A stretch of 64,000 nucleotides of DNA from Longimicrobiales bacterium (GCA_965238005.1 OZ250165.1:3168001-3232000); one strand, 5' to 3'. Numbered from the stretch's first letter, positions 19,964-64,000 are shown. Notes: generated from the letters alone by a model not told the origin. Numbers and translations: made by a program.

Positions 19964-20617
19964 TCATCGCTCCGCTCCCCCAGCCGCCGCCCCACGTCTA
20001 ATGGCCCCTGCCCTGGTCACGAGGTCCTCGAGGACGTCGTACGGCTGGGCGCCCACCACGCCGAAGCCTTCCGAGACGAAGGTCGGAACCCCAGTGACGC
20101 CCATCTCGGTGGCGCGCCGCCAGTGGTCGTCGATGGTCTCCCGGTGCATGCGCTCCTCGACGACGGCCCGGGCCCGCGTCCCGTCGAGCCCTTCGGATTC
20201 GGCTACATCCACGAGCACGTCAGTCTCGGCCAGGTTCCGGACATCGACGAAGTATGCGCGGTAGAGGGCGTCGTGCAGGGCATCGGTCACACCCTCTTCA
20301 TCTCCCCACACCGCCAGCTCCTGGGCCAGGCGGCTGTTGTATGTGTGGGTGCGGTCACCGTACTCGAGGCCTTCTTCGTCCATGAGCGCGACGAGACGCG
20401 AGCGCATGCCGGCCAGCCTCTCCTCACGACCGGCGAACAGATCCAGGAGGGAGCGCCCCTCAGGGGGGGTCTCGGGGTGGAGGGGAAAGTAGGTGTACTG
20501 GACATTGAGGTCGTACTCGGCTTCCAGCCTGCGAACGCGCCCGGCGCTCAGGTAGCACCAGGGTCAGACGAAGTCCGTGAAGACTTCGAGGACTCTACCG
20601 ACGTGCCTCGCCCGCAC
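19964..20617 (-). CDS. DsbA/FrnE-like selenoprotein (U-P-W-C)
   Basis: GGAGA RBS and GTG start; VLEVFTDFV-TGA(20566-20564)-PWCYL..FPLHPETP continues in frame into ORF 19964..20407 (GVTGVPTF, GAQPY). Confidence 0.9.
20528..20552 (-). promoter_or_regulatory. Putative bacterial SECIS hairpin of the DsbA-like gene
   Basis: CCUGAGCGC-CGGGC-GCGUUCGCAGG at +12..+36 after UGA, with GG in the apical loop at +22/+23. Confidence 0.7.
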
Positions 20618-20799
20618 CGATGTTCTCCGTGTAAACCCACCACAGATCCTCGCCCCCGTATCCTTCATCCCGTGTCGTGGTGATGTAGAGCGATCGGCCA
20701 TCGGGTGACGGTAGGGAGTGATGCTCGCTGGCGGCCGAATTGATCTGCGGACCGAGCCTCATGGTCTTCCTCCTATCTGGGCCGGGGCGGGCGTTCGGC

Positions 20800-20967
20800 T
20801 CATTCAGAGCCCTCCCATGCCGCCTTCACAGCCACCATCAGTGCCTTGAACCGCTCGTCTCCACGGATACTCTCGTAGAACGGATCTTGTATCGAAAAAA
20901 GGGGATAGTTGATCCAACCGCGCTCGATCCCGCGTTCCAGCCACGTCAGAGCCTCGTGTGCCTTTTA
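20800..20967 (-). pseudogene. Orphan C-terminal tail of a TPR/TolB-like (kinase- or cyclase-associated) protein
   Basis: KAHEALTWLERGIERGWINYPLFSIQDPFYESIRGDERFKALMVAVKAAWEGSE*; rest of the gene absent. Confidence 0.65.
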
Positions 20968-21026
20968 GCACCATGGCGGAGCTTCAAGAAATCACTACGA
21001 AAGGCGCGATCTTGCTCCGGGAAGTT

Positions 21027-21056
21027 ATACGTATGTTCTGATATGAATCATACGTA
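21027..21056 (+). promoter_or_regulatory. ATACGTA-N16-ATACGTA operator-like motif, copy 1
   Basis: ATACGTA at 21027 and 21050; identical spacing at two other loci. Confidence 0.55.
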
Positions 21057-21081
21057 CGTCGCGATATGCCCATCATCCTGC

Positions 21082-21150
21082 AAACCTCCACACTGTGCGT
21101 GAAAACCTCCACTATGCGTGAAAAGCGTCACTGTGCGCGAAAAGCGTCAC
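21082..21150. repeat. Imperfect 19-bp tandem repeat, about 3.6 copies
   Basis: aaacctccacactgtgcgtg / aaaacctccactatgcgtg / aaaagcgtcactgtgcgcg / aaaagcgtcac. Confidence 0.75.
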
Positions 21151-21151
21151 G

Positions 21152-23332
21152 CTAGGAATCCTGGTCCCCCGACGGGGCGGGATCCACCGTGAACGTGATG
21201 GACATCCCCGAGCCCATGTGCTCGGGGATCTGACAGTTGAGCATCCAGTTTCCGGGGTTGGACATGTCGACCAGGAGGTCCACGGTGGAGCCCACCGGGA
21301 TGACCGCCGTGTCCTTCCAGACCAGGTTGCTCGTCCGCACTCCGTCCCGCTCTACGACCAGAAAGCGCTGCCCGTGGAGGTGCATCGGGTGATTCATGGG
21401 ATGGACACCGCTACCCGGGTTCACCACGCGGATCTTGGCGACCTCTCCCTCCGTGAAGCGCCAACCTACCGCCGGGCGGATCTCTTCCTCTTCCTCTTCC
21501 TCATCTTCCGCGGACCTCGCGGGTTCGTGGAGCACCCATCGCACCTCCAGCCCCGTGGTCAGCCAGTTCATGACGGGCATGGCGTCGTTCCACTCCATGG
21601 GTGGGGAGTACGTCGAGCTGCGGATCGCCAGGTCGATGGCGGGCTCCAGGTCCTGGATCTGGAGGAGCAGCTCCAGCTCGTGGTCCACACCCTTGTCGAA
21701 GTGCGGCCGGAACCGGTCGATGTCGGCGATGACGTCCGTGTTCTCTCTCAGGCGCGAGAACGACTCCGAGAGGTCTCGGGCGGTTTCTTCGGTCCTCACT
21801 CGGATGACACCCAGCGTGTCCACCTTGGGATAGAAGACACCCACGAAGTGGTTGAGGGCGCTTACCCGGTTCGTGATGGCGACGTCGCCCGGCTCGGCGA
21901 AGCGGGCCTCGACGACGTAGCGCTGCCCCGGGGCGATCACCACGCTTTCAACCCACTCCTCCCGCTCAAACCTACCCAGGTCTCCGGCCACCACCTTCAT
22001 CGGGGCTCCGTCCAAGGAGAGATTGAAGCTCCGGGTGTTGGAGGCGTTGACGAGGAAGAAGCGCACCACATCCCCCTTGTCGACGGAGAGCTCGTGGTCC
22101 GCCCGCCCATTTACGACGATCTCCGTCCCGAAGCGGCCCATGAGGGCATGGGTAGGCGTGTCGCGTCCCCAGGGGATGAGCCCCTCGGCGTCGATGAGGA
22201 TGTCGTCCAGGATCATGACCTCCTCACGGTTCGCTGCCCCGTAGTAGTCCTCCTCCGCCGGTTCCACGAGAATCGCCCCGTAGAGCCCCAGATCCTGGGC
22301 CACGTCCCCCCGCTGATGCGGGTGGTACCAGTAGACGCCGGGATCGGGAAAGCGAACGCGGGCCCTGTACGTATCGCCGGGCCGCACGGGCCGCTGCGTG
22401 AGCCCGGGAACGCCGTCGAAGCGATTCTTCAGCCGGACGCCGTGCCAGCGAAGCGTGGTGGAGAGCTGGGTGTGATTCGTGAAGACCACCACGATCTCCG
22501 AGCCTTCCCGGATCTTGAGGACCGGACCAGGGCTCTGTCCGTTGAAGCCGTACAGTCCGATGTCCCGGCCTCGGAGGCTCCCGCGGACCGGCGCAGCCTC
22601 CAGATGGAGCGTGTCGCCGTCCGCCAGCTCGACCACGCCGGGACGCTCGGCACGAGGCAGGGGACCCGCCTCTGTCTCCATCCCCGGGAGGAAGGGCTCC
22701 ACTATGGGCACCAACCCCATGAGTCCGGGCATCATGGGGGACGCAGGCGCCATGGGAGGAGCCCTCCAGCCGGTGGCCGAGTTGTCACGGCCCGCGGGAG
22801 GAAACATGAGAGCGTCCCGATGCTGTTGGGCCTGCGCGCTTGGAGACGTCCCCCTCAGCACGAGCCGGCCGGTCCGCTCCGGCACGTCCGGGTGTGGCTC
22901 CGCGCTCATCAGGATGCGGAACTGGTCGTAGGCCAGGGTTCCCAGCCGCGTCCGGCCGTTCTTCACGACGCCAAGACGTACCGGTTTGCCGAGCAACAGC
23001 GTGGTAGCCCAGGCCACGTAGACCGTGTAGTCGCCCAGGGTCTCGGGGGGCGGAAGGCCCTCCACCGTCGCCGTCAGCTCGTAGAGGTAGTGCCCGTCCT
23101 GAGTGACGGCGACGTCGAACGGGGTCTGCACCCCGCGCAGCTCGAGAATCCCCGAGGCCTCGCGTAGGGCGGGAACGGGGATCAGATCGGTACAGTACGC
23201 GCTCCACGCCGGCACGGTCGCCGCCGTCGCGTCCTTCGGGCAAAGCTCCCCTGCCGGGGGCGTCGGAGCGACGCCCCCGGGCTGCTGTACGCTCAAGACG
23301 CCCAGCATGAGAGCACCTGCGAACGTCGTCAT
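21152..23332 (-). CDS. Secreted multicopper oxidase family protein with degenerate T2/T3 ligands
   Basis: FNGQSPGP, TTLRWHG, YWYHPH, HPMHLHG, WKDT and WMLNCQIPEHMGSGM motifs. Confidence 0.9.
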   Translation of the reverse strand: MTTFAGALMLGVLSVQQPGGVAPTPPAGELCPKDATAATVPAWSAYCTDLIPVPALREASGILELRGVQTPFDVAVTQDGHYLYELTATVEGLPPPETLGDYTVYVAWATTLLLGKPVRLGVVKNGRTRLGTLAYDQFRILMSAEPHPDVPERTGRLVLRGTSPSAQAQQHRDALMFPPAGRDNSATGWRAPPMAPASPMMPGLMGLVPIVEPFLPGMETEAGPLPRAERPGVVELADGDTLHLEAAPVRGSLRGRDIGLYGFNGQSPGPVLKIREGSEIVVVFTNHTQLSTTLRWHGVRLKNRFDGVPGLTQRPVRPGDTYRARVRFPDPGVYWYHPHQRGDVAQDLGLYGAILVEPAEEDYYGAANREEVMILDDILIDAEGLIPWGRDTPTHALMGRFGTEIVVNGRADHELSVDKGDVVRFFLVNASNTRSFNLSLDGAPMKVVAGDLGRFEREEWVESVVIAPGQRYVVEARFAEPGDVAITNRVSALNHFVGVFYPKVDTLGVIRVRTEETARDLSESFSRLRENTDVIADIDRFRPHFDKGVDHELELLLQIQDLEPAIDLAIRSSTYSPPMEWNDAMPVMNWLTTGLEVRWVLHEPARSAEDEEEEEEEIRPAVGWRFTEGEVAKIRVVNPGSGVHPMNHPMHLHGQRFLVVERDGVRTSNLVWKDTAVIPVGSTVDLLVDMSNPGNWMLNCQIPEHMGSGMSITFTVDPAPSGDQDS

Positions 23333-23361
23333 CCTCCCGCTGCCCGCTCCTCCTTCTCTAT

Positions 23362-23435
23362 CTAGTGTCCGTTACCAAAGTGTCTCGGCCAGTCGAGGGC
23401 ACGGTGCATCCGTGGCCTCGGCGTTGGGACTCCTT
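23362..23435 (+). mobile_element. Truncated one-ended copy of the MITE at 42665-42842, inverted
   Basis: About 74 bp near-identical to the reverse complement of 42772-42846, starting CTAG-TGTCCGTTACCAAAGT. Confidence 0.85.
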
Positions 23436-23626
23436 ACCATAGCATAAGCAGGGGGCCGGAAAATTGCAGTATAGGAGCATCAGTGCCGCGGGGCATCTCC
23501 GGCACCCCGCCCCATGCCGGACACAAGGCCCCTTCGATTCCTTGCAAAAACCTTGGTAATCTTCCAATCTGCCCTTCTGCTCCCGCTCGCCCAATTGGAA
23601 TCCCCCTGCCAACGGAGCGCTCAGTC

Positions 23627-25132
23627 ATGAAACGACGGACCTTCCTCCGATCCACGATCGCGGCGGCGGTCGCCACCTCGATTCCAGGCAGGCGGTCGCT
23701 GGCCGCTCTCTACTGGCCGGTGGCCCAGGTGCCCCCCGACGTCGATGCCATCACGGGAGACGGCCGGGAAGTCACGCTGAAGGGCAAGGCAGTCCAGGAG
23801 CTGGCCGCCAGCTTGAAAGGGCACCTGCTCCTGGCTGACGACGAGGGCTACGACGACGCTCGGCGCGTGCGCAACGCCTCCATCGACAAACACCCCGCCC
23901 TCATCGTTCAGGCGACCGGCGCCGCCGACGTAGCGAGCGCGGTGGATTTCGCACGGGAGAACAGCCTGCTAGTGGCGGTTCAGAAGTGCGGCGGTCACAG
24001 CCCGTCCGGAAAGTCCACGTGCGACCGCGGCATGATGATCGATCTCTCGCCATTCCAGGGTGTCCGCGTCGATCCGGTGGACAGGAGAGCCCGGGTCGCG
24101 GGGGGGACGCTGATCGGCCTGCTAGACCACGAGGCCATGTCGTACGGGTTGGTGACCCCCATGGGGACGGTGTCGCACACCGGCGTCAGCGGCTTGACCC
24201 TGGGCGGCGGATTCGGCCGAGTCGCACGCCGGTTCGGTTTGGCCCTCGACAACGTTATGGCCGTGGACGTGGTGACGGCGGACGGCAAGCTCCGTCGTGC
24301 CAACAAAGACGAGAACGAGGATCTGTATTGGGGAGTGCGCGGGGGCGGCGGGAATTTCGGTGTGGTCACTTCCTTCGAGTTCCAGCTGCATCCGATGCAA
24401 CGCCAGGTCGTCGGCGGCCACATCGTGTTCCCCATCGCCAAGGCTCGCGACGCCCTGAAGCTCTTCGCCGACTACGCCGTCGAGGCTCCCGACGAACTCT
24501 ACTTCGACTACTTCATGATGTTGCCTCCGGGGGGCGCTAACGGCGTGGCGGGGTTCAGCGTCTGTTACTCCGGGCCCGAGAGCGGGGCGGAGAAAGCGCT
24601 CGCGCCCATTCGCGGGTTGGGCACGCCGGCAATGGACGGCGTCACGGCCATGGACTACGTGGCGCTTCAGCGATCCGGTGACATCGACGACCCGCGCGCC
24701 ACGGGTAGCTACCTAAAGGGCGGCTTCGTCACCGAAATCGCGCCGGACCTTGTTACCGCCATCGTGGAGAACTTCGAGGGACATCCCAGACGCGTGACCC
24801 AGCTGTTCTTCCAGCACGCCGGAGGGGCCATCGGGCGAGTGGCGCCGGACGCGACGTCGTTCGCGCACCGGCACGCACAGCTCAACATGCTGAACGCCGT
24901 CGGCTGGAACGTGGGCGATGACCCGACCGCGCACGTCGACTGGATCAGACGGTACTGGGCCGAGCTCGAGCCCTTCACCAGCGGGTTCTATACCAACGAG
25001 GTCGGCGAGGAGACCGCTGAGATGATCGACGCCAACTACCGGCAGAACTTCGACCGCCTCGTCAGTATCAAGAACCGGTACGACCCGACGAACCTGTTCC
25101 GGCTAAACGCGAACGTGCAGCCGACGGCCTGA
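23627..25132 (+). CDS. Tat-exported FAD-binding oxidoreductase (VAO/BBE family)
   Basis: MKRRTFL Tat leader; CGGHS, GLTLGGG, RGGGGNFGVVT and YDPTNLF motifs. Confidence 0.92.
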   Translation: MKRRTFLRSTIAAAVATSIPGRRSLAALYWPVAQVPPDVDAITGDGREVTLKGKAVQELAASLKGHLLLADDEGYDDARRVRNASIDKHPALIVQATGAADVASAVDFARENSLLVAVQKCGGHSPSGKSTCDRGMMIDLSPFQGVRVDPVDRRARVAGGTLIGLLDHEAMSYGLVTPMGTVSHTGVSGLTLGGGFGRVARRFGLALDNVMAVDVVTADGKLRRANKDENEDLYWGVRGGGGNFGVVTSFEFQLHPMQRQVVGGHIVFPIAKARDALKLFADYAVEAPDELYFDYFMMLPPGGANGVAGFSVCYSGPESGAEKALAPIRGLGTPAMDGVTAMDYVALQRSGDIDDPRATGSYLKGGFVTEIAPDLVTAIVENFEGHPRRVTQLFFQHAGGAIGRVAPDATSFAHRHAQLNMLNAVGWNVGDDPTAHVDWIRRYWAELEPFTSGFYTNEVGEETAEMIDANYRQNFDRLVSIKNRYDPTNLFRLNANVQPTA

Positions 25133-25372
25133 GCCCCCTACCGGTGCCGATCCAAAAGCGCCTCGCACGCGGGGTCGTTCCGGATGGGCTCCCAGGTCCA
25201 GCGGGTCTCCAGGGTGTGAACCGTGACGAGCGAGGGCGCTGAGAGCAGTGGCTCCAGTTGCTCAACCGCACCCTCTAGAGCGACAGCAGGGGACAATCAA
25301 CCAGGATTTCCCGGAGGGGCGGTCGGGGCTGCCCCTAGACCTGACTCCTTGGTTCTGGCCACGCACCAGGTA

Positions 25373-25558
25373 GGCATACTGAGGGATTCGGGCGACATGA
25401 AGCCAGGGTACGCCCGTGACAACGACGCCGGCATCTACTTTGAGGACAACGAAGTAAAGAGAGTCGTTCGCACGCGGGAGGACGCCAAAGTCTACTATGT
25501 GAGCCTCTCAGGGGGCAGAATCGTGGAGCGAGAGCTCGAGTCGGAGATGATCGATTAG
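25373..25558 (+). pseudogene. Orphan C-terminal tail of a peptidase E (S51)-like gene
   Basis: GDMKPGYARDNDAGIYFEDNEVKRVVRTREDAKVYYVSL..VERELE; upstream part absent. Confidence 0.6.
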
Positions 25559-25610
25559 GACCTTCAGCGGGGGCGGCCCCACATCGGATCTGTCAGCGAA
25601 AGGACGCTAG

Positions 25611-27212
25611 GAGTCTGCGCCGCAGAAGCACAGCTGACTGAGCCGAATGGTCATCGAGCCGTCCGCGGCGAGGCGGATCCGGGTGATTGGGAGGTTGAGG
25701 ACTTGTGTCTGCGACGGATCGGGAGAGCGGAATGGATGCGTTGGGGGGGGCAAGAGAGCTACGAGAGCCCTCGCGCCGGCAGATGCGGGTGAACCCTCGT
25801 GCAGTCATGCCGCCTGAAGGGTGTGCAGCCGCTTCACATTGAGTGCCAGGCACACGAGGGTCCACTCGGCCCGGACCTTCTCGAGGCCCCGGAAGCTGAA
25901 TCGTCGAAAGCCCATCACTTCCTTGATCCAGCCGATGGGCGCCTCGGCCTGCGACTTTCGCCGTGCGTAGCGTCTGCGGCCATCTTCGCTCGCCAGCTTC
26001 TCCGCCATGCGGACTTTCGCCGGATATTCCTCCTTGTCAACCGTGGGGGCGGCCTTGCCCTCCCGGGCCAGCGCCACATACCCGTCGATGTCTCGCTCTT
26101 CCAGTTCCTCGAGATCCCGCTCGTTGCAATAGCCCGTGTCCGCCAGCACCTGCGCCGGCGTCTCGCCGTACGCTTGCGCCACCGCGTCGACCATGGGCAC
26201 CAGCTGGCCCTGGTCGCTCGCGTTGTCCGTCACCTCGGCCCCGACCACCAGCTGGTTCTCCCCCTCCACGACCGTCTGTGCGTTGTAGCACTGCTGGAAC
26301 CCCTCCGAACTCGTCTTCATGATCCGGCTCTCAGGGTCCGTGAAGTTGCTCTGCGCCGCCTCGTCCGGCTCTCCGTACTCCCGCTTGTAGGGCCTGCCGC
26401 CCTTCGGGTTGCGCGTCTGCCCCGGCTTGCGGCCCCGTGCGTCGTCCGCCGCTCTCTGCTCGGCTTCCAGGCGCGCCTTCGCCTCCCGGATCGCCGCCAG
26501 CCGGTCCTCGCGCCGCTTGAGCTCCTCCGGCACCTCGTCTCCGCATGCTTCCTCGCCGTAGCGCTCGTCTTCCGCTTCGTCCACCGCCTCGGCCCTCTCC
26601 AACAGCCCCCGGATCTCCGCCTCCAGCCGAGGCTCCCCGGTCACCATCCGGCCGTAGCTCATCGCCTTGCGCTTGTTCGCGTTCGCCCGAACCTTCGTCC
26701 CGTCCACCGACACCCTGCCAAGCCCCGCCAGCCCCAAGGCCCGCGCGAGCATCACCACCTCCACAAACACCGCCCGGAAATCCCCGAGATGGCGCTTGCG
26801 GAACTCGCACAGCGTCCGGTGCTTCGGGAAGTTCTCCGCCGCCAGCATCCGAAACGCGACATCCTCCTCCAGCTTCCTCGCCATCTTCCGCGACGAGAAG
26901 GTGCCCGTCGCATACGCGTAGATCAGCACCTTGACCATCATCCGAGGGTCGTACGGCGAGTTGCGCCGCCCGTCCCCCCGGTACCGCCCGTAGAACGCGC
27001 TCAGCTCCACCGCGTCCACCAGGTCGCTCACATGGTGCGCCAAATGACCCTCCGACACCCACTCCCGAAGATCCGGAGGCAGCAACAACATCTGCTCCGG
27101 ATCGTACGGTCGAAATGTCGTTCCCATTCACCCCCCTCGGTGATCCGCAAGCCTTCCCAATGCCTTCGCTACCACCAAAGATAGCCGCCGCAGGGTTCTG
27201 CGGCGCAGACTC
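25611..27212 (-). mobile_element. IS1182-family insertion sequence, 1602 bp
   Basis: Perfect 17-bp TIR GAGTCTGCGCCGCAGAA (25611-25627 and 27196-27212), flanked on both sides by CTAG (25607-25610 and 27213-27216). Confidence 0.93.
25805..27127 (-). CDS. IS1182-family transposase
   Basis: FRPYDPEQMLLLPP, YDPRMMVKVLIYAY, VDGTKVRANA, NFTDPESRIMK, LADTGY and FSFRGLEKV motifs. Confidence 0.93.
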   Translation of the reverse strand: MGTTFRPYDPEQMLLLPPDLREWVSEGHLAHHVSDLVDAVELSAFYGRYRGDGRRNSPYDPRMMVKVLIYAYATGTFSSRKMARKLEEDVAFRMLAAENFPKHRTLCEFRKRHLGDFRAVFVEVVMLARALGLAGLGRVSVDGTKVRANANKRKAMSYGRMVTGEPRLEAEIRGLLERAEAVDEAEDERYGEEACGDEVPEELKRREDRLAAIREAKARLEAEQRAADDARGRKPGQTRNPKGGRPYKREYGEPDEAAQSNFTDPESRIMKTSSEGFQQCYNAQTVVEGENQLVVGAEVTDNASDQGQLVPMVDAVAQAYGETPAQVLADTGYCNERDLEELEERDIDGYVALAREGKAAPTVDKEEYPAKVRMAEKLASEDGRRRYARRKSQAEAPIGWIKEVMGFRRFSFRGLEKVRAEWTLVCLALNVKRLHTLQAA

Positions 27213-27217
27213 CTAGC

Positions 27218-41147: not shown

Positions 41148-41771
41148 GTGGGCAAGGCCGTCGGGAGTCGACCGCGGCTCCTCCTACTGGACCTCTTGGC
41201 GCAGGGGGAGAAGACGGTGGAGACCCTCGCGCGTCAGGCCGGGCTCACGGTAGGGAATACCAGCGCTCACCTGAAGGGGCTTAGGCACGCGTCGCTCGTG
41301 TCCACTCGCAAGGAGGGAGCCCACGTCTATTACCGACTTGCCAGCCTCCGTGTCCACGAGTTTGTGCGGTCCTTGCAGGCCCTCGCGGGTGGGCAACTGG
41401 CCGAGGCGAGAGAGATCATCGACGACTACTTCCATGATCCGGACGTGCTGGAGCCGGTTCACTCCACCGATCTCCTCGATCGGTTGCGCGCCGGTGAAGT
41501 GACCGTGCTCGATGTACGTCCGCCGGATGAGTACGCGGCTGGACACATCCCCGGGGCGATTTCCATGCCGGTAGGCGAGATCCAACAGCGTTTGGCAGAG
41601 CTGCCGTCCGACGGAGAGATCGTCGCCTATTGCCGAGGTCCGTATTGCATCTACGCCGTTCGCGCGGTCGAGGCGCTTCGGAGGGTCGGGTTCCTAGCGC
41701 GGCGGCTGGAAGAAGGCATTCCTGATTGGACCATCCGCGGCCTGCCCGTGACGGTGGGCGCCGCACCTTGA
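41148..41771 (+). CDS. ArsR/SmtB regulator fused to a rhodanese domain
   Basis: SAHLKGLR..RKEGAHVYYRL HTH; LDVRP..GHIPGA..AYCRGPYC rhodanese. Conserved-looking residues (KLELFEHFAR) extend upstream of the GTG without an ATG, so the start is uncertain. Confidence 0.88.
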   Translation: MGKAVGSRPRLLLLDLLAQGEKTVETLARQAGLTVGNTSAHLKGLRHASLVSTRKEGAHVYYRLASLRVHEFVRSLQALAGGQLAEAREIIDDYFHDPDVLEPVHSTDLLDRLRAGEVTVLDVRPPDEYAAGHIPGAISMPVGEIQQRLAELPSDGEIVAYCRGPYCIYAVRAVEALRRVGFLARRLEEGIPDWTIRGLPVTVGAAP

Positions 41772-44276: not shown

Positions 44277-45308
44277 ATGTCCATAGGTCCCATCCGTTTC
44301 GTTCGAGCCACGGTCCTGTTCGCGCTCCCGCTGTCATTCTGGGCCGCAGCCGTCAGCGGGCAAGACAGCGATTTCGACATTGACATCGCACGGATAGGAG
44401 TCGGCTCGATGTTCGAGCCGTTTCGCGTTTCCGAGAGCGAGCCGCTGCGGGACGCCATGTCCTCGGGCAAGCTCCAAGGTGACGCCCGTGTCCTCGTCAT
44501 GGACCCCACAGCGGGGCGGCTCGCGTTTCTCACGGACCAGATGGCATATCACCACGTGGCCCAAGGGGAGATCAACGGCGAGCCCTGGATGGTCTCCTTC
44601 TGAGTCGTATGCAACACAGGGGTCGGTCTGACTCCCACGGTAGACGGCAAGGTTCACCACTTCCGGACTCGGGGTATCTACAACGGCCTCTCGATGCTCG
44701 GCGACGAGGAGACGGGGTCCATCTGGAACCATATCACCGGCAGGGCGGTCTACGGACCGCTCGAGGGCTACACCCTTGCGGTCTTCAACCTCCTGCACAT
44801 GACGGCGGAGCAGGCGCTGGACCGCTATCCCGGGCTGTCCGTCGCCATCTCGGACCGTCCGGTCCGTGGTCGCAGAGGGTTCTTCGCCCCCGTCGCTGAT
44901 CGGCTCCCCTTCCTTCGGGAGGGCTTCAGGAGCACGATCGTGCAGGAAGATACACGTCTTCCGACCATGGAGATCGGGCTCGGAGTCTGGACCGAGTCGG
45001 AGCGGCGGTACTATCCCATGGAGGCCGTCCAAGCGGGCGGGGGAGCCATCGTCGATGGCTTCGACGGCAGACGCCTGGCCGTCTATGTAGAGCCCGGGTC
45101 CTACTCTCTGGACGCGTTCTTCACGGAGGAGCAGACGGTCTCAGCGGACGGCTCTCGCGTCACGGTGGGCGAGGAGCTGGTGCTCGAGGGCGGTGTCCTC
45201 CGGGATGCGAGTGGCCGCCAACTCGAGATGGACAGGCCACTTCAGTTGTTCTCGAGGTGGTACGGTTTCGCCCTGACCTTCCCCGGCACCACCATCTACG
45301 GGCGCTAG
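44277..45308 (+). CDS. DUF3179-family selenoprotein (U-V-V-C), secreted
   Basis: ORFs 44211..44603 and 44694..45308 are in frame: YHHVAQGEINGEPWMVSF-TGA(44601)-VVCNTGVGLTP..GIYNG..DEETGSIWNHITGRAVYGPL..RWYGF. Confidence 0.9.
44619..44635 (+). promoter_or_regulatory. Putative SECIS hairpin of the DUF3179 gene
   Basis: GGGGUC-GGUCU-GACUCC at +16..+32 after UGA, with GG at +22/+23. Confidence 0.7.
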
Positions 45309-55198: not shown

Positions 55199-56655
55199 GA
55201 AGCTGTCCCAACCGTAGTTGAAGGTTCCTGATAGGGGAGAAAGAAAAGTGGTGGCTCCGGGGGTCCCGGGCCGATAGGCTCGGGTAGGCAAAAACCCCAA
55301 CACGGAGCCACCACGATGAAGAGAACGTACGAGGTAAGGGATCGGGCGGACAAGCGCGCGATCAGGGAGTTCCTGAAGCGGGAGGGGCAGTTTCTGCTTC
55401 CGATGCTTGAGCTCGTGGAGCAGACGGAGGTCGCGATCGACGAAGTCATCCAGGTGATGGGACGAGCGACGATCGAAGCGGTGCTGGAGATGAGCGCCGA
55501 GGGTGTGGCAGGCGTGAAGCAGGCAGGTCGGTCACGAGCGGAAGACGACACGGTGTGGTATGGCCGGCAGGGTGGTGTGGTTTACCTGTCGGACCGGAAG
55601 GTGCGTGTGGAGCGGCCACGGCTCAGGCGCCGGGGCGCCGGGGAGGGTGGCGAGGTCGAGGTGCCGGCGTACGCAGCGATGCGGAGACCGGGCGCCGTGG
55701 CGGATCGGATGCTCGAGGTCCTGATGGCGGGGGTGAGCACGCGGAAGTACGGCCGTGTGATCGGTGAGATGGCCGACACGGTCGGGGTGAGCAAGTCGGC
55801 GGTGAGCCGTGAGACGGTCGAGGCCTCGGAGCGCGTGCTGAAGGAGCTGATGGAGCGCCGGCTGGATGCGTGGGACCTCCTGGTGATCTACCTGGACGGG
55901 ATCCAGATGGGCTCGCACCACGTGCTTGCTGCGGTAGGCGTGGACTCAGACGGAAAGAAGCACGTGCTGGGCGTGAGGGAAGGAGCGAGTGAGAACGCCG
56001 AGGTGACCAGCGCGCTCCTAGAGGATCTGGTCGAGCGCGGCCTGGACCCGGGCAGGCGGCGGCTGTTCGTGATCGATGGCTCGAAAGCGCTCAGGAAGGC
56101 GATCGAGAAGGTGTTCGGCCAACGTCACCCCATCCAGCGCTGCCGCAACCACAAGCTCCGCAACGTGCTGGGTCATCTGCCGAAGGATCAGCATCCTCAG
56201 GTGAAGGCGGCGTTCCGGGCGGCGATGAAGCTGGACGCGAAGCAGGGCGAGCAGAAGCTCGAGCAGCTCGCCCGATGGCTCGAGCGCGACCACCCCTCGG
56301 CCTCGGCCAGCCTACGCGAAGGCCTCAGCGAGATGTTCACGATCAACCGGCTCGGCCTCCCGCCGCGGCTGAGGAAGTGCCTGGGCTCGACCAACCTGAT
56401 CGACAGCACCCACTCGGGCGTAAGACAGAAGACCCGCAGGGTGACCAACTGGAAGAACGGAGCGATGGCCTTGCGCTGGGCTGCGGCCTCGTTCGTGGAG
56501 ACCGAGAAGAGCTACCGGAGGATCATCGGCTACGACCAGCTCTGGATGCTCAGGGCCCACCTCGACGACCATGAACCGGTTGCCGAAATGAGAAAGGCAG
56601 GCTAACAAGGAGACTCTCCGGAGCCACCACCTTCAACTGTCAGCGGGACACCATC
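55199..56655 (+). mobile_element. IS256-family insertion sequence, 1457 bp
   Basis: Imperfect 27-bp TIRs GAAGCTGTCCCAACCGTAGTTGAAGGT and GATGGTGTCCCGCTGACAGTTGAAGGT; 8-bp TSD TGGCAGCC at 55191-55198 and 56656-56663. Confidence 0.92.
55316..56605 (+). CDS. IS256-family transposase
   Basis: GVSTRKY, YLDG, VIDGSKAL, QRCRNHK and STNLIDS motifs. Confidence 0.92.
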   Translation: MKRTYEVRDRADKRAIREFLKREGQFLLPMLELVEQTEVAIDEVIQVMGRATIEAVLEMSAEGVAGVKQAGRSRAEDDTVWYGRQGGVVYLSDRKVRVERPRLRRRGAGEGGEVEVPAYAAMRRPGAVADRMLEVLMAGVSTRKYGRVIGEMADTVGVSKSAVSRETVEASERVLKELMERRLDAWDLLVIYLDGIQMGSHHVLAAVGVDSDGKKHVLGVREGASENAEVTSALLEDLVERGLDPGRRRLFVIDGSKALRKAIEKVFGQRHPIQRCRNHKLRNVLGHLPKDQHPQVKAAFRAAMKLDAKQGEQKLEQLARWLERDHPSASASLREGLSEMFTINRLGLPPRLRKCLGSTNLIDSTHSGVRQKTRRVTNWKNGAMALRWAAASFVETEKSYRRIIGYDQLWMLRAHLDDHEPVAEMRKAG

Positions 56656-57008
56656 TGGCAGCCGACAAGAACACACTGCAGCGGGTCACAACCAACCTCG
56701 GGCCCTTGAGACATGGTACGGGGCCTCGCCGCAGGCACGCTGCAACCTCGGAGTATATCTCGGCAATACGAGCCACTGCAAGGCGAGACCCTGCCGAGGC
56801 GCCGTATATGCCCCGTCATTTCATTAACGTGAGCCTGCTGTGCGCTACACAGGCAGTGTGCGACTACGATGCCTACCGCGCCAGCCGCAGTCAATTCCGG
56901 GCCGGCTGAGGGTGGAGGGCAATGAGCTAACCTATGAAAGCGTCCGGACATCTTCGCCTCCGGCCCCCCTCTCTGGCTCCGTGTGGTGGTCATCGGGTGC
57001 GGTAGGAG

Positions 57009-58379
57009 CTAAACCCCGTTCTCGTCCACGGCCAGCAGGCTGCGAAGCAGCACGTTCGCGCCCGCCGTTATCTGTTCTGGGGGTGTCATCTCCAGGGGCG
57101 AGTGGCTGATCCCATCCAGGCTGGGCACGAAGATCATTCCCACGGGGCCCAGGTGCGCGATGCTCTGCGCGTCGTGCCCGGCGCCGCTGGGCATGCGCAA
57201 CGTGGTGAGGCTGAGCCGCCGGGCCTCGGCTTCGATGACGTCCCGGAGGCGCAGCGCGGTGGGAGCGGCCCGGCTGGTGTAGAACTGCTCGAACTCCACG
57301 CTCGTGCCGTCGCTCTCGGCCAGCGCGGCGGCCTCGCCTCGGATCGCCTCGAAGATCTCGTCGATCTTGGACATCTCCAGGTCGCGGATCTCCAGGCTGA
57401 ACGTGACCCGTCCGGGAATCACGTTGGGCGCGCCCGGCTCAGCGCTCACGCGGCCGACCGTGGCCACCTGCCGTCCCGGCGTGGTGCGCGCGATTCGGTT
57501 GACGGCCTCGATCATCCGGGCCGCCGAGACCATGGCGTCGTGGCGCTGATCCATGGGCGTGGTGCCGGCGTGGTTGGCGAAGCCTTCCACCGTGACGGTC
57601 CAACGCTTGATGCCCACGATGCCCTCGACCACTCCGATGTCGATGCCGGCCCGGTCGAGGACGAAGCCCTGCTCGATGTGGAGCTCGAAGTACGCCGTCA
57701 GCGAGCCGGGCTCTCGTCGAGCCTCCTCCAGCCGGCTCAGGTCGCCGCCGATGCGCAGCGTGCCTTCCCCGATCGTAAAGCCACTCGCCGTTCTGACGTC
57801 GAGCTCGGCCGGGTCCACCTCGCCCGAGATGGCGCGGCTTCCCGTCTTCCCGCCTTCCTCATTCGCCCAGATGACGAATTCGAGACCGTGGCGGGTGCGA
57901 TGGCCCGCGTCGGCCAGCGTGGTCGCGACCTCCAACGCGGCCATGGAGCCCACCTGTCCGTCGTAGTTCCCGCCCAACGGGACAGAGTCGATGTGTGATC
58001 CGAGCAGCAGCGGCGGCAGGTCAGGGTCGGAGCCCGCGCGCTGGCCGATCAGGTTCCCTGCGAGGTCGACCGAGACTTCGAGCCCGGCGTCGCTCATGAG
58101 GGTCGCCACCCACTCGCGGGCGGCGATGTCGGCGTCGCTGTAGGCGACCCGGCTGACCCCTCCCGCGGGCGTGGCGCCGAAGCGGGCCAGATCGGTGAGC
58201 GTTCGGCTGAGGCGGTCCCCGTCCACCAGCAAGTCGGGCGGGGCCGGGGCGACACGGGCGCCGCCCACCAGCAGATGGGGAGCGTTCCCGGCGCCGCCGG
58301 GCAGCCGCCAGAGCGCGGGCGGCACCATGCCGAGCGCGAGCCCTCCTGACGCGAGACGGGTGAAGTGACGGCGGTCCAT
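57009..58379 (-). CDS. Zn-dependent N-carbamoyl amidohydrolase (M20; allantoate amidohydrolase-like) with Tat leader
   Basis: GSHIDSV, YDG, NEEG, ELHIEQG, NHAGTTPM and SGAGHD motifs; MDRRHF leader. Confidence 0.9.
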   Translation of the reverse strand: MDRRHFTRLASGGLALGMVPPALWRLPGGAGNAPHLLVGGARVAPAPPDLLVDGDRLSRTLTDLARFGATPAGGVSRVAYSDADIAAREWVATLMSDAGLEVSVDLAGNLIGQRAGSDPDLPPLLLGSHIDSVPLGGNYDGQVGSMAALEVATTLADAGHRTRHGLEFVIWANEEGGKTGSRAISGEVDPAELDVRTASGFTIGEGTLRIGGDLSRLEEARREPGSLTAYFELHIEQGFVLDRAGIDIGVVEGIVGIKRWTVTVEGFANHAGTTPMDQRHDAMVSAARMIEAVNRIARTTPGRQVATVGRVSAEPGAPNVIPGRVTFSLEIRDLEMSKIDEIFEAIRGEAAALAESDGTSVEFEQFYTSRAAPTALRLRDVIEAEARRLSLTTLRMPSGAGHDAQSIAHLGPVGMIFVPSLDGISHSPLEMTPPEQITAGANVLLRSLLAVDENGV

Positions 58380-58614
58380 GGCTCGTCCGTTCTATGTTTG
58401 GCCGGCCCCTGTGTGGCCTCCAGCGCCCAGACGGGTGACTGGATCGGACACGGGCGAACTCCGAGACCAGACCGAGGTCAAGATCCTATGAGGGGGCCGG
58501 GAGGCGCAAGCGGCAGGCGAACGGTCTGACTCGCTGAGCGGGTTTTCCCCAGGGGCGGCGAGTCTGTAGTTTCTCTGCGGCTCATCGCTGCCATCACAAC
58601 AGGACCTGCGCCTG

Positions 58615-59739
58615 GTGCCCAACCCGATCCCATCGCAAATCCAACACGAGGCCAGCCCGATCGTGGTGATCGGCCGCGTCGTCTACTTCCTCGCCCTGCT
58701 CTACCTGTTCTTCTCCAGCATCGAGCTGATGAGCACCGCGTTCAAGATGAGCGGCGCAGGACTCGCGGATCAGCTCCTGAACACGGCGTCGGACCCAGTC
58801 GCCGGGCTGCTCATCGGATTCCTGGCCACGAGCCTGATCCAGAGCTCCTCGACCACCACCACCATCGTGGTGGGACTCGTGGCGTCCGGTGCGCTCACCA
58901 TTGAGCTCGCCGTGCCCATCATCATGGGTGCGAACATCGGAACGACAACGACGAACACAATCGTGTCGATCGGGCACGTGACCCGTCCGGCGGAGTTCGA
59001 GCGGGCCTTGGCGGCTTCCACGGTGCACGACTTCTTCAACGTGCTCGCGGCGTTCACGCTCCTGCCAGTGGAGATCCTTTTTCACCCGGTCGAGAAAACG
59101 GCGATCTTTCTGCAGCGCGTGTTCGCCGGTGCCGGTGGCATGAGCCTGGCCAGCCCTCTCAAGCTGGTCGTGGGTCCACCCGCCGAATTCCTCTCGGAGT
59201 TGATCCCCTACACGATTCCGCTGGGCATTCTGGCTCTCGCTCTGCTCTTCATGGCCCTGCGAGGGATGCTGACGTTCATGCGGGGCGTCGTCCTACAGCG
59301 CCTGGAAGGGCTCTTCGACAGGGTCCTCTTCCGTAACGACGCCGCGAGCTTCACTCTGGGCGTCGTTGCGACGGCGTCCGTGCAGAGCAGCTCGGCGACG
59401 ACGTCTTTGATCGTGCCCTTGGCGGGCACCGGGGTCCTCACCCTACGTCAGATCTTCCCGTACACGATTGGGGCGAATATCGGAACCACCATCACCGCGA
59501 TCCTCGCCTCGTTTTCGACCGGAAGCCCGGCGGCGGTGACCATCGCCCTGGCTCACCTGGCGTTCAATATGATGGCCGTCGCGATCTTCTATCCTCTGAA
59601 GGCCCTGCCCATCGAGCTCGCGAGGAGGTGGGGCGTCTTCGCGGCCCGCTCGAAGGTGAGCACTGCCACTGTGTTCTCTGTCTATATCGCGTTGCACGTC
59701 ATACCGCTCGCGTACATCATTTGGTCAGCGAAAAGGTAA
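58615..59739 (+). CDS. Na/Pi cotransporter family protein
   Basis: Two QSSS..GANIGTT repeats. Confidence 0.92.
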   Translation: MPNPIPSQIQHEASPIVVIGRVVYFLALLYLFFSSIELMSTAFKMSGAGLADQLLNTASDPVAGLLIGFLATSLIQSSSTTTTIVVGLVASGALTIELAVPIIMGANIGTTTTNTIVSIGHVTRPAEFERALAASTVHDFFNVLAAFTLLPVEILFHPVEKTAIFLQRVFAGAGGMSLASPLKLVVGPPAEFLSELIPYTIPLGILALALLFMALRGMLTFMRGVVLQRLEGLFDRVLFRNDAASFTLGVVATASVQSSSATTSLIVPLAGTGVLTLRQIFPYTIGANIGTTITAILASFSTGSPAAVTIALAHLAFNMMAVAIFYPLKALPIELARRWGVFAARSKVSTATVFSVYIALHVIPLAYIIWSAKR

Positions 59740-59745
59740 CAAGCC

Positions 59746-60426
59746 ATGTGGAAACAAATCGTCGCGCTCTTCAGGTCCGGAGGCCCACTGCAGGAGGCAT
59801 ATGACGAGGCGATCCTGATGCTTCGGGCCTCCCACGACATGTTCGACCACGCAGTCACGGCGCTCCACGCGGAGGGCACGCCAAAGACCGACATCTACAA
59901 GCGCGATCAGCAGCTCAACAAGTACGAGCGGAGCGTTCGTCGCAAGATCGTCACGCACATGTCCGTGTCGTCAAAGCCTGACATCAACCTGGGACTGGTG
60001 CTCACCGCGATCGTCATCGACATCGAGCGGATCGGCGACTACACCAAAAACATCGTGGAGTTGGCGTCCGCGGTTCCGGGGCCCTTCGATGGGCTCGAGC
60101 TACACGACAAGGTGGTTGGGATCGAGCAGATCATGGCTCGGATGTTCGATGACATCGTGCCCGCCCTTGAGGAATCCGACATGGTTCGGGCCAGGGGCAT
60201 CATAAAGTCCCACACCTCCATCGCATCCAAGGTGGACAAACAAGTGCGTGCCCTGTGCTCGGGTAAGGCGTTGTCGGGACGGTCGGGGCATGCGGTCACG
60301 GTAGCACTCTATCTGCGCTATCTGAAGCGCGTCAGCGCGCACCTCAAGAACGTGGCCACCAGCGTAGTGAATCCCTACCACCGGATCGGATTCCGGGAGA
60401 AGAAGTCTCGAGCCAAAAAGGGTTGA
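59746..60426 (+). CDS. PhoU domain protein
   Basis: DIERIGDYTKNI and RYLKRVSAH motifs; directly follows the Na/Pi transporter. Confidence 0.88.
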   Translation: MWKQIVALFRSGGPLQEAYDEAILMLRASHDMFDHAVTALHAEGTPKTDIYKRDQQLNKYERSVRRKIVTHMSVSSKPDINLGLVLTAIVIDIERIGDYTKNIVELASAVPGPFDGLELHDKVVGIEQIMARMFDDIVPALEESDMVRARGIIKSHTSIASKVDKQVRALCSGKALSGRSGHAVTVALYLRYLKRVSAHLKNVATSVVNPYHRIGFREKKSRAKKG

Positions 60427-60437
60427 TCGGGAGCCGA

Positions 60438-60650
60438 ATGAACGAAGAGCAGTGGTTCGGCCTGCTGGGGCTCATCGTCGGCCTCTATCTATTTGTGTGC
60501 GCGACTTGGAAAAGAGACTTCTTCCTCTACGACTGGAAGGTGCAACGGGCCATCGCTTGGTATGGAGAGGAGAAGGCGCACCTTGGCTTTCAAATAGGTG
60601 GAGTCATCGTGATGATCGTGGGCGTCCTGAAGTTGCTGCAAGTGATCTAA
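60438..60650 (+). CDS. Small two-TM membrane protein
   Basis: GGAG RBS, ATG, two hydrophobic helices; co-oriented with the phosphate genes. Confidence 0.65.
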   Translation: MNEEQWFGLLGLIVGLYLFVCATWKRDFFLYDWKVQRAIAWYGEEKAHLGFQIGGVIVMIVGVLKLLQVI

Positions 60651-60654
60651 GGAA

Positions 60655-60935
60655 TCCCCATGCGGTGGTCATCGTCTGATCGTCTTTCTTGACGAGACGC
60701 ACATTGTGGTAGGCCGTCGAACCCGTAGACATCCCCACGTCCAATCGAAGCTCGGCGATGCTCTCGCGTGGGACCTGACGCTTCCGCATGGGCAGGAGCA
60801 TCCGGTGTGTCACGGTGACCCCCTCCGGCCCGGCGGTGACCCGTGTGCTTCCCAACAACAAGAAAGCGAAGACGCCAGCGAAGAACGCGTCGACCACGAG
60901 CAGGCCGTAGAAGAACGGAAAACGGATCCTCTCGG
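60655..60935 (-). pseudogene. Probable relic of a membrane protein gene
   Basis: Protein-like stretch FPFFYGLLVVDAFF..GSTRVTAGPEGVTVTH..VGMSTGSTAYHNVRL with no credible start. Confidence 0.35.
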
Positions 60936-61119
60936 AGCGGCGCCAGGATGGTGACGGCCAGCTCGGTCTCCGTTGTCCAGTTGCGAGCGCCCACCTTCCG
61001 CATATAGTCTGAGAGCCCACAAGCCGGCACAATGCAGGCTGAGGTTCGTAGTGACCCCAGACGCCTTGCGACGGTATCCGGCCATAGGCGGATCGGTTAA
61101 CCTGGCCTCTGGGGGAGAG

Positions 61120-61953
61120 ATGAAGATGAACGCGCACTGTAGTCGAGTCATCCGTCGGACCCGAGCCGCGTTGGGGATCGGGGCCCTACTCACCGCCTTT
61201 GTTTGGAGTGTCGGGGCTCGGGCGGCTGTGGCCCAGGAGGCCTCCCGAGGAAATGATCCGAAGGCGCTGGAGCTGGTGGAATCCTGGATCGGCGCCCTGG
61301 GAGGCATGGAGCTGTATCACAACCTGCGGACCGCCCAGTTCACGTTGACCACCGAGATGTATGACACCGCCTCGGGACGATTGAGGAGGACGAGGCCCCG
61401 CTACGTCACGATCGCGCAGTTGCCGGGTGCGCTTGCGGCCCGTATCGAGCGGTGGGAGGGGGACGACTTCATCGTGCAGGGATGGGACGGGGTGACGGAT
61501 TGGGCGTACATGAACGGGCGGCGCCTGACTCCCAAAGACAAGGACCGACAAGAGGTGCGCTATGTGTCGGGGGACGTCAACTACTGGATCGCGCTTCCGT
61601 TCAAGCTAAAGGATCCTGGTGTATACCTGCACTACGACGGAAGGGACGATGCGGGTCGCCACGTTGTACGGGTGACCTTTGGCGAGGGGATTGGTAACGA
61701 TGAGTGGCACTACTATTTCGTCGACGGACGCACATGGCCCGTTCAGGTGGATTACCAAGAAGTAGGCAGAACGAACGCGAACCACACCAGGTGGGAAGAG
61801 ATCCAGAGTACCGATGGGTACTACTACGTCGGCGCCCGCGTACACTTCGATGACGAGGGCCGCGTCTTCAAGATCGTCCGCACCGGAGACGTCAAGATCA
61901 ACGGCAGGGTGGATCTCGACGTGTTCTCGCGGCTCGGCTCCTCGACAAACTAG
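61120..61953 (+). CDS. Secreted hypothetical protein (LolA/DUF6503-like fold suspected)
   Basis: GGGGAG RBS, signal peptide ending AVA; ALGG..L and YWIALPFKLKDPGV motifs. Confidence 0.65.
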   Translation: MKMNAHCSRVIRRTRAALGIGALLTAFVWSVGARAAVAQEASRGNDPKALELVESWIGALGGMELYHNLRTAQFTLTTEMYDTASGRLRRTRPRYVTIAQLPGALAARIERWEGDDFIVQGWDGVTDWAYMNGRRLTPKDKDRQEVRYVSGDVNYWIALPFKLKDPGVYLHYDGRDDAGRHVVRVTFGEGIGNDEWHYYFVDGRTWPVQVDYQEVGRTNANHTRWEEIQSTDGYYYVGARVHFDDEGRVFKIVRTGDVKINGRVDLDVFSRLGSSTN

Positions 61954-62007
61954 TCCGGAGTTCGCGGTTGGGGCCGTCTCTCGCCGGCCGGCCCCAACCC
62001 CTCAGCT

Positions 62008-62166
62008 ATTGGCCGAGCGTACGACCGGAACACTCACGAGGTCCAGTGGGAGTTCGATGCGAGCCGTGGCTACCCGACCCGGATCTTCATCGACTATTCG
62101 GAGATGGTCATGGACGAAGAGCTGGGCTTCACGCTGTTGGGTGACGTTCGGGCCTTGGGAGACTGA
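62008..62166 (+). pseudogene. Orphan C-terminal tail of a DUF6174-like protein
   Basis: EVQWEFDASRGYPTRIFIDYSEMVMDEELGF..*; no start codon. Confidence 0.55.
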
Positions 62167-62378
62167 CGCTCATCACCGAGCCCGACGATGAACCTCCGTT
62201 CTGAGCGAGGGTGTGGATGGGAAACCTGTGCGTCGATCATCGGAAGAGAGGCCAAGCCCATGTCCCGCGAAGACGTTCGCCTTGCCACCCACGGCTCGAA
62301 ATCCCATCGTGGTACCCCTGAGTGGTGTGCCACGCCTCTCCGAGGTCAACCGAACCCTACCTTTCTTGGGAGCCTATC

Positions 62379-63008
62379 ATGATCCGTCGAATCTCTTTAG
62401 CAGCCCTTGCGCTTCTGATCGCAGTGCCGCTGGCGGCGCAAGCGCCCGAAGGGTGGCAACTGCGGGTGGACCGGAGCAGGAACGCTGCCGACCCGGACGA
62501 CGTGCCCGAGGTGGAATTCGGGACCGCGGAAAGCGGATTCCAGATCAACACCGGCCCCGCCGCCGTGGCGTGGAAGTCGGAGAACACCGCGTCGGCCACC
62601 TACACCCTCGAGGGCAAGTTCACCTTGCTCGAACCCAGCGATCACGCGAACTACTACGGTCTCGTGTACGGCGGCGGTGACCTTGAGGGCTCCAGACAGA
62701 ACTACTTGTACTTCCTGGTGGCACAGAACGGCAGCTACATCGTCAAACACCGGGCGAACGACGAGACGACCCACGACATAGTCGGCCGGACGCCGCACGA
62801 CGCGGTGGTGGAGCCCGACGCCAATGGTAAATCGGTCAACGAGCTGCAGGTACGGGTGGGGGAGGATCAGACCGAGTTCGTCGTGAACGGAACAGTCGTC
62901 CACACCGAGGCGAGGTCAGGGATGGCTTCCCGCACGGACGGCATCTGGGGCGTCCGGATCAACCACCGCCTCCCGGGCGTTGTGGTCGAGGGACTGCGGG
63001 TCCGGTAG
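62379..63008 (+). CDS. Secreted lectin/DUF1080-like jelly-roll protein
   Basis: GGAG RBS, signal peptide; TGPA, YGLVYGG, YLYFLV and GIWGVRINH motifs. Confidence 0.7.
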   Translation: MIRRISLAALALLIAVPLAAQAPEGWQLRVDRSRNAADPDDVPEVEFGTAESGFQINTGPAAVAWKSENTASATYTLEGKFTLLEPSDHANYYGLVYGGGDLEGSRQNYLYFLVAQNGSYIVKHRANDETTHDIVGRTPHDAVVEPDANGKSVNELQVRVGEDQTEFVVNGTVVHTEARSGMASRTDGIWGVRINHRLPGVVVEGLRVR

Positions 63009-63391
63009 TTCCCTCCCGCTGACGGAGGTTTCCGATGCCTTCGTGGACGATTCGAATGACTGGGCCGCTCGGCGTGTTCTTGCATCCCTGAACCGCCCGC
63101 GCATCTTGGTCCGGGAACCGGCCCAGGAACGGGAGTTCCTCGGGGTATCCCCGGCTCGCTCCCGGGCGGTCGCGCCACCTCACAGGGCCTTTGTTTCGCC
63201 TTCTATCCCTTGAGAAATTTCAGAAAATCGCCCCCCGGCGCTCTCTCGCCGAAGGAGGGCGAATGATCCCAGTACGCCGTCAGCTTCGATTGCTCGAGGA
63301 GGTTGGGCCGCCCCCCGTCTTGCGGATCTGGGCTCGGCCGAAGCACCCGATTTGACGACGAGCTCGTGACGGATCGGGGCACGCGGTACGG

Positions 63392-64000
63392 TCAGTTCAG
63401 CTCGGCGAGCGCCTCCAGGATGTCTTCGTTCGTCGGCCGAATGCGGTAGTCGATCTCGATGAATTTCCAACGGACCTCACCTCGCTTGTCGATAACGAAG
63501 ACGGCGGGGTGCGGGACCGACCGCTGCCGCGACTCGTCCGGATTGAACAATCCGTAGCGATCGATGACCGCGTGATCGGGATCGGATAGTAGCGGAAACT
63601 CGATAAGCATACCGTCGTCCTCGGCGACCCGATCGATCATCATCTGCTGCTGCTCGAGCTCATCCACCGAAAGCGCAAGCAACTCAGTATTCTCCCTCCG
63701 CTCTGGAGAAAGGAGTTCTCTCAGCTCACCGAGCTGACTGGCGCAGTAGGGTCACCAGTGGCCCCGGTAGAAGACCAGGACGACGTTCTTGTCATCGCGG
63801 TAGTCGGACAGCGTCGTCACCGTTCCCGCGTACGTCATCACCGAAAAGTCGGGCGCGATGTCGCCCACCGCGACCCTACCCGTGTCGATGGCGGGAAGGT
63901 CGAAGCCATCGTGCGGTCCGAGGCGAATCTCCGGCCTCGCCGTGAGCCAGGCAGTAACCGCCAGCGCAGCGGCAAGTCCCAAGAATACAACCAACCCTTT
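63392..64000 (-). CDS. AhpC/TSA (peroxiredoxin-like) selenoprotein (U-P-Y-C), start at or beyond the window edge
   Basis: APDFS..VVLVFYRGHW-TGA(63754-63752)-PYCASQLGEL..ALSVD..FPLLSD..PAVFVIDK in one frame; N-terminal TM/signal. Confidence 0.92.
63721..63737 (-). promoter_or_regulatory. Putative SECIS hairpin of the AhpC-like gene
   Basis: UCAGCUC-GGU-GAGCUGA perfect 7-bp stem at +15..+31 after UGA, with GG at +22/+23. Confidence 0.75.

Follow-up and report, generated by a model that had tools for sequence, protein, structure and literature searches.

Three redox-type genes in a 64,000-nucleotide (nt) stretch of a Longimicrobiales (Gemmatimonadota) genome are each interrupted by an in-frame TGA, at which open reading frame (ORF) calling with translation table 11 breaks all three. 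The question raised by this locus is whether these triplets are selenocysteine (Sec) codons, and whether an identically placed CGG downstream of each is a rule of the lineage. The whole stretch that was analysed, referred to here as the window, corresponds to G000:C1:3168001–3232000, in a genome consisting of a single contig of 4.84 Mb with 64.8% G+C.

With the TGA read through, the interrupted motifs are UPWC (T of TGA at window position 20566, minus strand), UVVC (44601, plus strand) and UPYC (63754, minus strand). An earlier note, made from the sequence of the window, had placed each TGA at the first position of a UxxC motif, followed after exactly 20 bases by CGG, with Gly at codon +8; all of this holds in 3/3 genes (Gly codons ggg, ggt and ggt). 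Spanning the TGA in each is a Pfam domain: PF01323 (DSBA) at 117.6 bits, PF11376 (DUF3179) at 82.7 bits and PF00578 (AhpC-TSA) at 107.9 bits, against cut-offs of 25.6, 27 and 26 bits, respectively. The three genes are unrelated, and their predicted products are a cytoplasmic DsbA/FrnE-like, an exported DUF3179 and a membrane-anchored Prx-like protein. Comparison of sequences makes it highly probable that the TGAs are Sec codons, each followed within the coding sequence by a canonical hairpin of the selenocysteine insertion sequence (SECIS) type, and that N20-CGG is shared by chance within a common register.

Conserved TGA codons and covarying hairpins

The DUF3179 gene (44277–45308, plus strand) encodes a protein with a predicted N-terminal hydrophobic export signal. 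Its candidate Sec codon (44601–44603, plus strand) is the first position of UVVC; ordinary DUF3179 proteins have the first Cys of a CPLC motif aligned with it. In 41 related genomes, 14/14 matches of at least 43% identity carry one TGA and matches of 23–31% identity carry none; the corresponding column reads TGC in L033, L036, L037 and L041, of which L037 comes from an unpublished genome (G025) and the remaining comparators agree with it. Within genome_contigs, members of the subfamily to which the window protein belongs have TGA in that column at 73/80 loci and TGY at 7/80. By record title, carriers of the Sec form are Longimicrobiales, other Gemmatimonadota, Thermodesulfobacteriota, Planctomycetaceae, Myxococcales and Chloroflexota metagenome-assembled genomes (MAGs), and the subfamily also occurs in cultured Thermoactinomycetaceae isolates, the titles including Melghirimyces profundicolus DSM 45787, M. 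thermohalophilus DSM 45514 and Marinithermofilum abyssi.

Immediately downstream is a hairpin (44619–44635, plus strand) recovered by folding and by covariation, with a 6-base-pair (bp) stem formed by positions +16 to +21 and +27 to +32, counted from the first base after the UGA, and the loop GGUCU at +22 to +26. The alignment of 71 distinct sequences has 98.1% of its cells paired, 19 cells changed on both sides and 3/6 pairs covarying; slid controls are 32–60% paired.

At the end of the window is the gene for a Prx-like thiol:disulfide oxidoreductase of the AhpC/TSA type (63392–64000, minus strand), with an N-terminal membrane anchor or signal. Its ATG start lies 9 nt past the window end, at window coordinate 64009 (found in L060), and its stop is the TGA at 63392–63394. 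In the read-through translation the candidate Sec codon (63752–63754, minus strand) occupies the first position of UPYC. Folds and covariation both place after it a hairpin (63721–63737, minus strand) with a 7-bp stem (+15 to +21 with +25 to +31) and the loop GGU (+22 to +24). The best matches, one per genome in 16 genomes and 51–100% identical, carry one TGA in 16/16 cases. A motif search recovered 15/16 of these loci, all reading UPxC; the locus that it did not recover, L071, is excluded from the alignment. Pairing reaches 96.2% of cells in the 15 orthologues, with 5 cells changed on both sides (slid controls, 29–46%), and where two genomes have Phe for Leu in the 5′ arm, the 3′ arm compensates with gag to gaa, a synonymous change. 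More distant AhpC/TSA matches lack the stop, and the Pfam match covers the U, which leads the UxxC motif; alignment of Cys with Sec is available for the DUF3179 and DsbA-like genes only.

The DsbA-like gene, of the FrnE type (19964–20617, minus strand), starts with GTG at 20617, preceded by GGAGA, and stops with TGA at 19964–19966; no signal peptide was seen in its product. The candidate Sec codon (20564–20566, minus strand) forms the first position of UPWC in the read-through translation, and stem enumeration, together with a fold begun at +7, gives a hairpin (20532–20550, minus strand) with a 7-bp stem (+14 to +20 with +26 to +32) and the loop CGGGC (+21 to +25). The TGA form is present in G001 and G002 (91–93% identity) and in G099 (51% identity), and TGC or TGT occupies the position in 11 more distant homologues. 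G099 keeps the CGGGC loop with two pairs altered on both sides, that is, with compensatory changes. On these alignments, covariation in orthologues lifts all three hairpins above chance.

Complementing the conserved TGAs is a complete set of the genes that the earlier note had proposed to look for: selA (555.9 bits), selB (327.6 bits, or 354.9 bits with a C-terminal piece), selD (370.9 bits, with one in-frame TGA of its own) and a tRNA-Sec with anticodon TCA (71.5 bits) are all present in the genome. Across the phylum, selA scores above its cut-off in 239/301 sampled genomes, a count independent of the two unpublished genomes among the 239 (G192 and G096), and in the family of the window it matches at E ≤ 1e-60 in 45/47 genomes. 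The note's view that the TGAs are Sec codons is thus upheld by TGA conservation in orthologues, by Cys codons in distant homologues (DUF3179 and DsbA) and by hairpin covariation. Under the established bacterial mechanism, SelB carrying guanosine triphosphate and Sec-tRNA(Sec) would bind the apical loop and deliver Sec as the UGA enters the ribosomal A site, and the products would then have a U-x-x-C selenenylsulfide redox centre in place of CxxC. We infer Sec insertion, SelB binding and a redox function for the three genes from their sequences.

The hairpin register across the genome

In the bacterial SECIS model, the loop has 3–9 nt, the stem 4–16 bp, a G stands in the first two loop positions, and the element lies 16–37 nt from the UGA (bSECISearch rules as quoted in PMC13188914; the 16–37 nt spacing is repeated in PMC10778597). 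All three window hairpins (3/3) fit this model, with loops CGGGC at +21, GGUCU at +22 and GGU at +22 on stems of 7, 6 and 7 bp. In the predicted structures of the DUF3179 and Prx-like elements C+21 would close the stem and the two Gs would open the loop; in the DsbA-like element all three bases of CGG would lie within the loop. It is in the first two loop positions that the published model needs a G. Segments of 42 nt fold at −12.8, −9.7 and −12.7 kcal/mol, and are not the exact hairpins to which the published minimum free energy threshold refers.

The linear pattern by itself is unspecific, because TGA-N20-CGG occurs 58 times in the window (22 and 36 on the two strands) and follows 24/1110 true TGA stops; over the whole genome it follows 2.8% of all TGA triplets. 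The earlier note had nonetheless proposed that a fixed-register SECIS of the form UGA-N20-CGG marks a hidden selenoproteome of the lineage. This proposal, which we regard as improbable, bears on how Sec sites elsewhere in the genome are arranged.

Candidate sites were sought genome-wide as in-frame TGAs with coding potential on both sides and a hairpin or a nearby Cys. As a two-sided 30-codon coding-potential filter missed the three known sites, whole-segment scores with motif and hairpin filters were used instead. Twenty candidates were sent to Pfam, and at least 16 sites, the three window genes included, have a Pfam domain across the TGA with the TGA at a Cys-type position. The scan is not exhaustive and 16 is a lower bound. 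The validated sites belong to the DsbA-like gene, three DUF3179 genes (one with an extra TAG), the Prx-like gene, a TxxU peroxiredoxin, a Redoxin-TPR protein, an HMA protein, a glutaredoxin, SelD, two CMD/AhpD-like proteins, two OsmC proteins and two UxxG methyltransferases of the arsenite-methyltransferase kind. The two methyltransferase genes (L079, G000:C1:1137398–1138747; L087, 3644180–3644968) are paralogous S-adenosylmethionine methyltransferases with the TGA in LW..U.xGALLE, and a DUF2652 domain is fused to one of the two. Two further parts of the earlier note are therefore sustained: with at least 16 Sec-type TGA sites the genome can be called fairly Sec-rich, and standard ORF calling does miss such genes, table 11 splitting the three in the window and at least thirteen more elsewhere.

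The exact geometry fares differently. It is shared without deviation by the three window genes, and a register near it is common: the loop starts at +21 or +22 in 8/16 sites by fold reading (for three of the eight this takes a bulge, a loop of 8 nt or a stem of 4 bp), and a strict hairpin, with a loop that opens at +21/+22 and has a G among its first two bases, is found after 5/16 Sec sites as against 21/1110 true TGA stops. Yet CGG at +21 to +23 is confined to the three window genes, 3/16 of the validated sites. The first loop base falls between +15 and +27, most often at +21/+22; it lies at +15 to +18 in four sites (SelD, the two methyltransferases and one CMD protein) and at +24 to +27 in another four (Redoxin-TPR, one CMD protein and the two OsmC proteins). 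A genome-wide search for UGA-N20-CGG followed by a hairpin, as the note had suggested, gave 40 in-frame matches; those with a redox motif that are also validated are the three window genes and no others, so that the search added no further validated selenoprotein. Two other matches (genome positions 356189 and 3492300) score positively for coding downstream and stand outside the Pfam-checked set.

The DUF3179 family argues in the same direction. G+23 alone never varies among its orthologues, which have either C or G at +21, any of G, A and U at +22, and G or U at +24; CGG as such is not kept. Its register is identical in every phylum that carries the gene, from Thermodesulfobacteriota, Planctomycetaceae, Myxococcales and Chloroflexota MAGs to the Thermoactinomycetaceae isolates, and therefore follows the protein family, not the lineage. 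Also at odds with a lineage rule is a second Sec-DsbA, in G028, with its loop at +19 as read by eye. The exact geometry shared by the window genes coincides within the commonest register and is not a lineage rule.

A more speculative reading of the common register, to which we give a low probability, is that +21/+22 with an obligatory G at +22/+23 could represent a sharp optimum of SelB and ribosome efficiency, about one codon further from the UGA than in E. coli fdhF, the sites at +15 to +18 and +24 to +27 being of low efficiency or regulated. If such an optimum existed, the register could predict the expression level of a selenoprotein.

The scan also returned sites of other kinds. The mraZ and mraW genes, lying in the same frame, were a false positive, as were near-identical repeated copies with an in-frame TGA between two coding segments (genome positions 327574, 877899, 2727658 and 494726/710834), which are likely to be insertion-sequence copies. 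Also rejected were two pairs of paralogues in which a conserved TGA precedes an MbeD/MobD-like region, no domain extending across the TGA.

Other readings of the in-frame TGA codons

Several observations weigh against reading the three TGAs as Sec codons. Single-sequence folds of the 60 nt after each TGA are no better than those of shuffled sequences (z = −0.54, −0.28 and −0.14). In the DsbA-like gene, the 60-nt minimum-energy fold puts CGG within a stem and not in a loop, the hairpin of the earlier note appearing if folding begins at +7 and in the stem enumeration. Covariation in this gene comes from one diverged orthologue (G099), the three genus members being identical in the hairpin, and its Sec form is rare and sporadic (at E ≤ 1e-28 it has matches in 3/301 genomes sampled from the phylum). 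In-frame TGAs also occur away from Cys positions in this genome, in an old yellow enzyme and a molybdopterin oxidoreductase, and therefore not every in-frame TGA in it is Sec. Finally, the organism is an uncultured MAG, whose incorporation of selenium is predicted from sequence.

Some of these points would suit TGAs that are nonsense mutations or assembly errors in pseudogenes, as would the nature of the off-Cys sites, where the expected residues are Arg in the old yellow enzyme and Ala in the molybdopterin oxidoreductase, and the third DUF3179 copy with its added stop. For the window genes such an origin is very hard to reconcile with TGA at the same column in 16 Prx-like genomes, at 73/80 DUF3179 loci and in 4 DsbA genomes, with intact downstream frames, or with hairpins that covary, and we give it almost no weight. 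Equally implausible is the reading of TGA as a standard amino acid (Trp, Gly or Cys) by an altered code or general read-through, to which the occurrence of in-frame TGAs in several genes lends nothing specific: TGA is otherwise the main stop codon (645/1181 long ORFs end in it), a dedicated tRNA-Sec (TCA) with selA, selB and selD is present, and the validated TGAs lie at catalytic Cys positions with hairpins after them. The TGAs of the window genes thus remain, with high probability, Sec codons.

The off-Cys genes lie outside the window. In the old-yellow-enzyme gene (L088, G000:C1:3773601–3774782; PF00724 at 274 bits) the TGA stands where a paralogue has Arg (QLWHVG-U versus QLGHAGR), and has the look of a nonsense mutation (CGA to TGA) or of an error in the assembly rather than of Sec. 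The TGA of the molybdopterin oxidoreductase gene (L082, 1700817–1702838) aligns with Ala in a distant paralogue, and that of a chromate transporter gene (L092, 4561135–4562592) is at a non-Cys position; either may reflect a pseudogene, an error or recoding. A search of five relatives for the old yellow enzyme and the molybdopterin oxidoreductase found only distant paralogues and no orthologue.

Family context and known selenoproteins

The genome has three DUF3179 paralogues. The third Sec copy (L076, G000:C1:295864–296607), outside the window, has an extra in-frame TAG after ...MDVGLGL, where its orthologue L139 has Trp, and may be a pseudogene. Elsewhere in the subfamily, some Cys (TGY) members, L176 from a Chloroflexia MAG and L163, L169 and L174 from Thermoactinomycetaceae, keep a SECIS-like hairpin in the same register, perfect in L176, which suggests recent Sec-to-Cys conversion.

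An AlphaFold2 model of the DUF3179 protein, built with an 80-sequence alignment, has a mean predicted local distance difference test score of 86.7 and places UxxC at the turn between two strands. Foldseek found nothing in the PDB at E ≤ 0.001 with this model, and a profile search of PDB sequences with the alignment found nothing below E = 0.16. With residues 78–177 (window 44508–44807), a predicted N-terminal domain that includes YHH, UxxC and WNH, VIA-align gave 3dqy_A as its best match (Z 7.0, root-mean-square deviation of 2.6 Å, 91/106 aligned), a Z of 7 being middling by that tool. Rieske-type or related proteins fill rows 1–12 without exception and make up most rows as far as rank 40; the first plainly unrelated entries appear near Z 3.7. 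The ligand motif of the Rieske iron–sulfur cluster is CxH ... CxxH, a pattern that is not conserved in the wider DUF3179 family. Conserved across the family are one His, CxxC, one Asp and one Trp, and these residues suggest that a metal or redox centre may be present; ordinary DUF3179 proteins have Gln in place of His152 of the Sec subfamily.

Sec forms of DsbA are also found in other families of the same order. A separate one, with UPFC, is L054 (G028), with a hairpin loop GAG at about +19 by eye, and further DsbA matches with one TGA occur in G031, G033, G038 and G039.

In the window, the genes neighbouring the three show no functional link between them. A multicopper oxidase gene (21152–23332, minus strand) precedes the DsbA-like gene by 534 nt in the same orientation; upstream of the DUF3179 gene is a major facilitator superfamily transporter gene and, two genes upstream, an ArsR-type helix-turn-helix/rhodanese fusion (41148–41771, plus strand). 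Rfam gave no match at the gathering threshold over the whole window. The earlier note had drawn attention to the density of three Sec genes in 64 kb, which is not significant: in a simulation with 16 sites, three fall within 64 kb with P = 0.22, and the observed span of 43.2 kb has P = 0.11. The idea of a Sec-gene island was dropped, the clustering being compatible with chance.

The main use of these findings is in annotation. The genes are split in this genome, and in the NCBIfam search no model rescues any of the three in the window. They add the Longimicrobiales to the Sec-rich bacteria; by title or abstract opening, our literature search found no paper on a Gemmatimonadota selenoproteome. 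The Sec-DUF3179 subfamily provides a large SECIS alignment supported by covariation, and its presence in cultured Thermoactinomycetaceae makes experiments possible. The known mechanism of Sec decoding is unchanged by them.

The novelty that the earlier note attached to these genes was overstated, as two reviews already describe the three families and the SECIS rules between them (PMC9312934 and PMC13188914). Listed there are selenoproteins of the DsbA-like (PF01323, UxxC), DUF3179 (PF11376, UxxC/T), Prx-like (PF00578, UxxC), AhpD/CMD-like, OsmC-like, Grx, Prx and arsenite methyltransferase (UxxG) families. To these known families the three window genes add new members, with SECIS elements of the canonical kind.

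The DsbA-like protein, with PF01323 at 117.6 bits and UPWC, shares with DsbA-like selenoprotein form 1 (PF01323, UxxC; same sources) the DSBA domain and the N-terminal position of the motif. It differs in its sporadic distribution, in one genus and G099, and the G028 Sec form has its hairpin at another position. For the Prx-like protein (PF00578 at 107.9 bits, UPYC), the AhpC/TSA domain, Sec first in UxxC and a SECIS directly downstream are shared with the Prx-like selenoproteins (PF00578, UxxC/UxxU) given in table 1 of PMC13188914. It differs from those listed in its Gemmatimonadota clade and its N-terminal anchor, and it scores below every NCBIfam cut-off (best 64.5 bits versus 211).

With PF11376 at 82.7 bits and UVVC as its UxxC/T motif, the DUF3179 protein has in common with the DUF3179 selenoproteins of the same two sources the domain and Sec at the first Cys of the family CxxC. 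Its subfamily is distinct from ordinary DUF3179 proteins in having YHH and WNH motifs in place of WHE and WQQ; unlike them it is almost always a Sec form (73/80 loci), and no NCBIfam model matches it.

The hairpins themselves can be set beside the SECIS of E. coli fdhF. The fdhF sequence was read here, and its base pairing is one that we assume. The fdhF loop starts at +19, and those of the window genes, at +21/+22, are 2–3 nt more distant from the UGA. From +19 onwards fdhF reads GGUCU, the very pentamer that forms the DUF3179 loop, which in the window gene is displaced by 3 nt away from the UGA.

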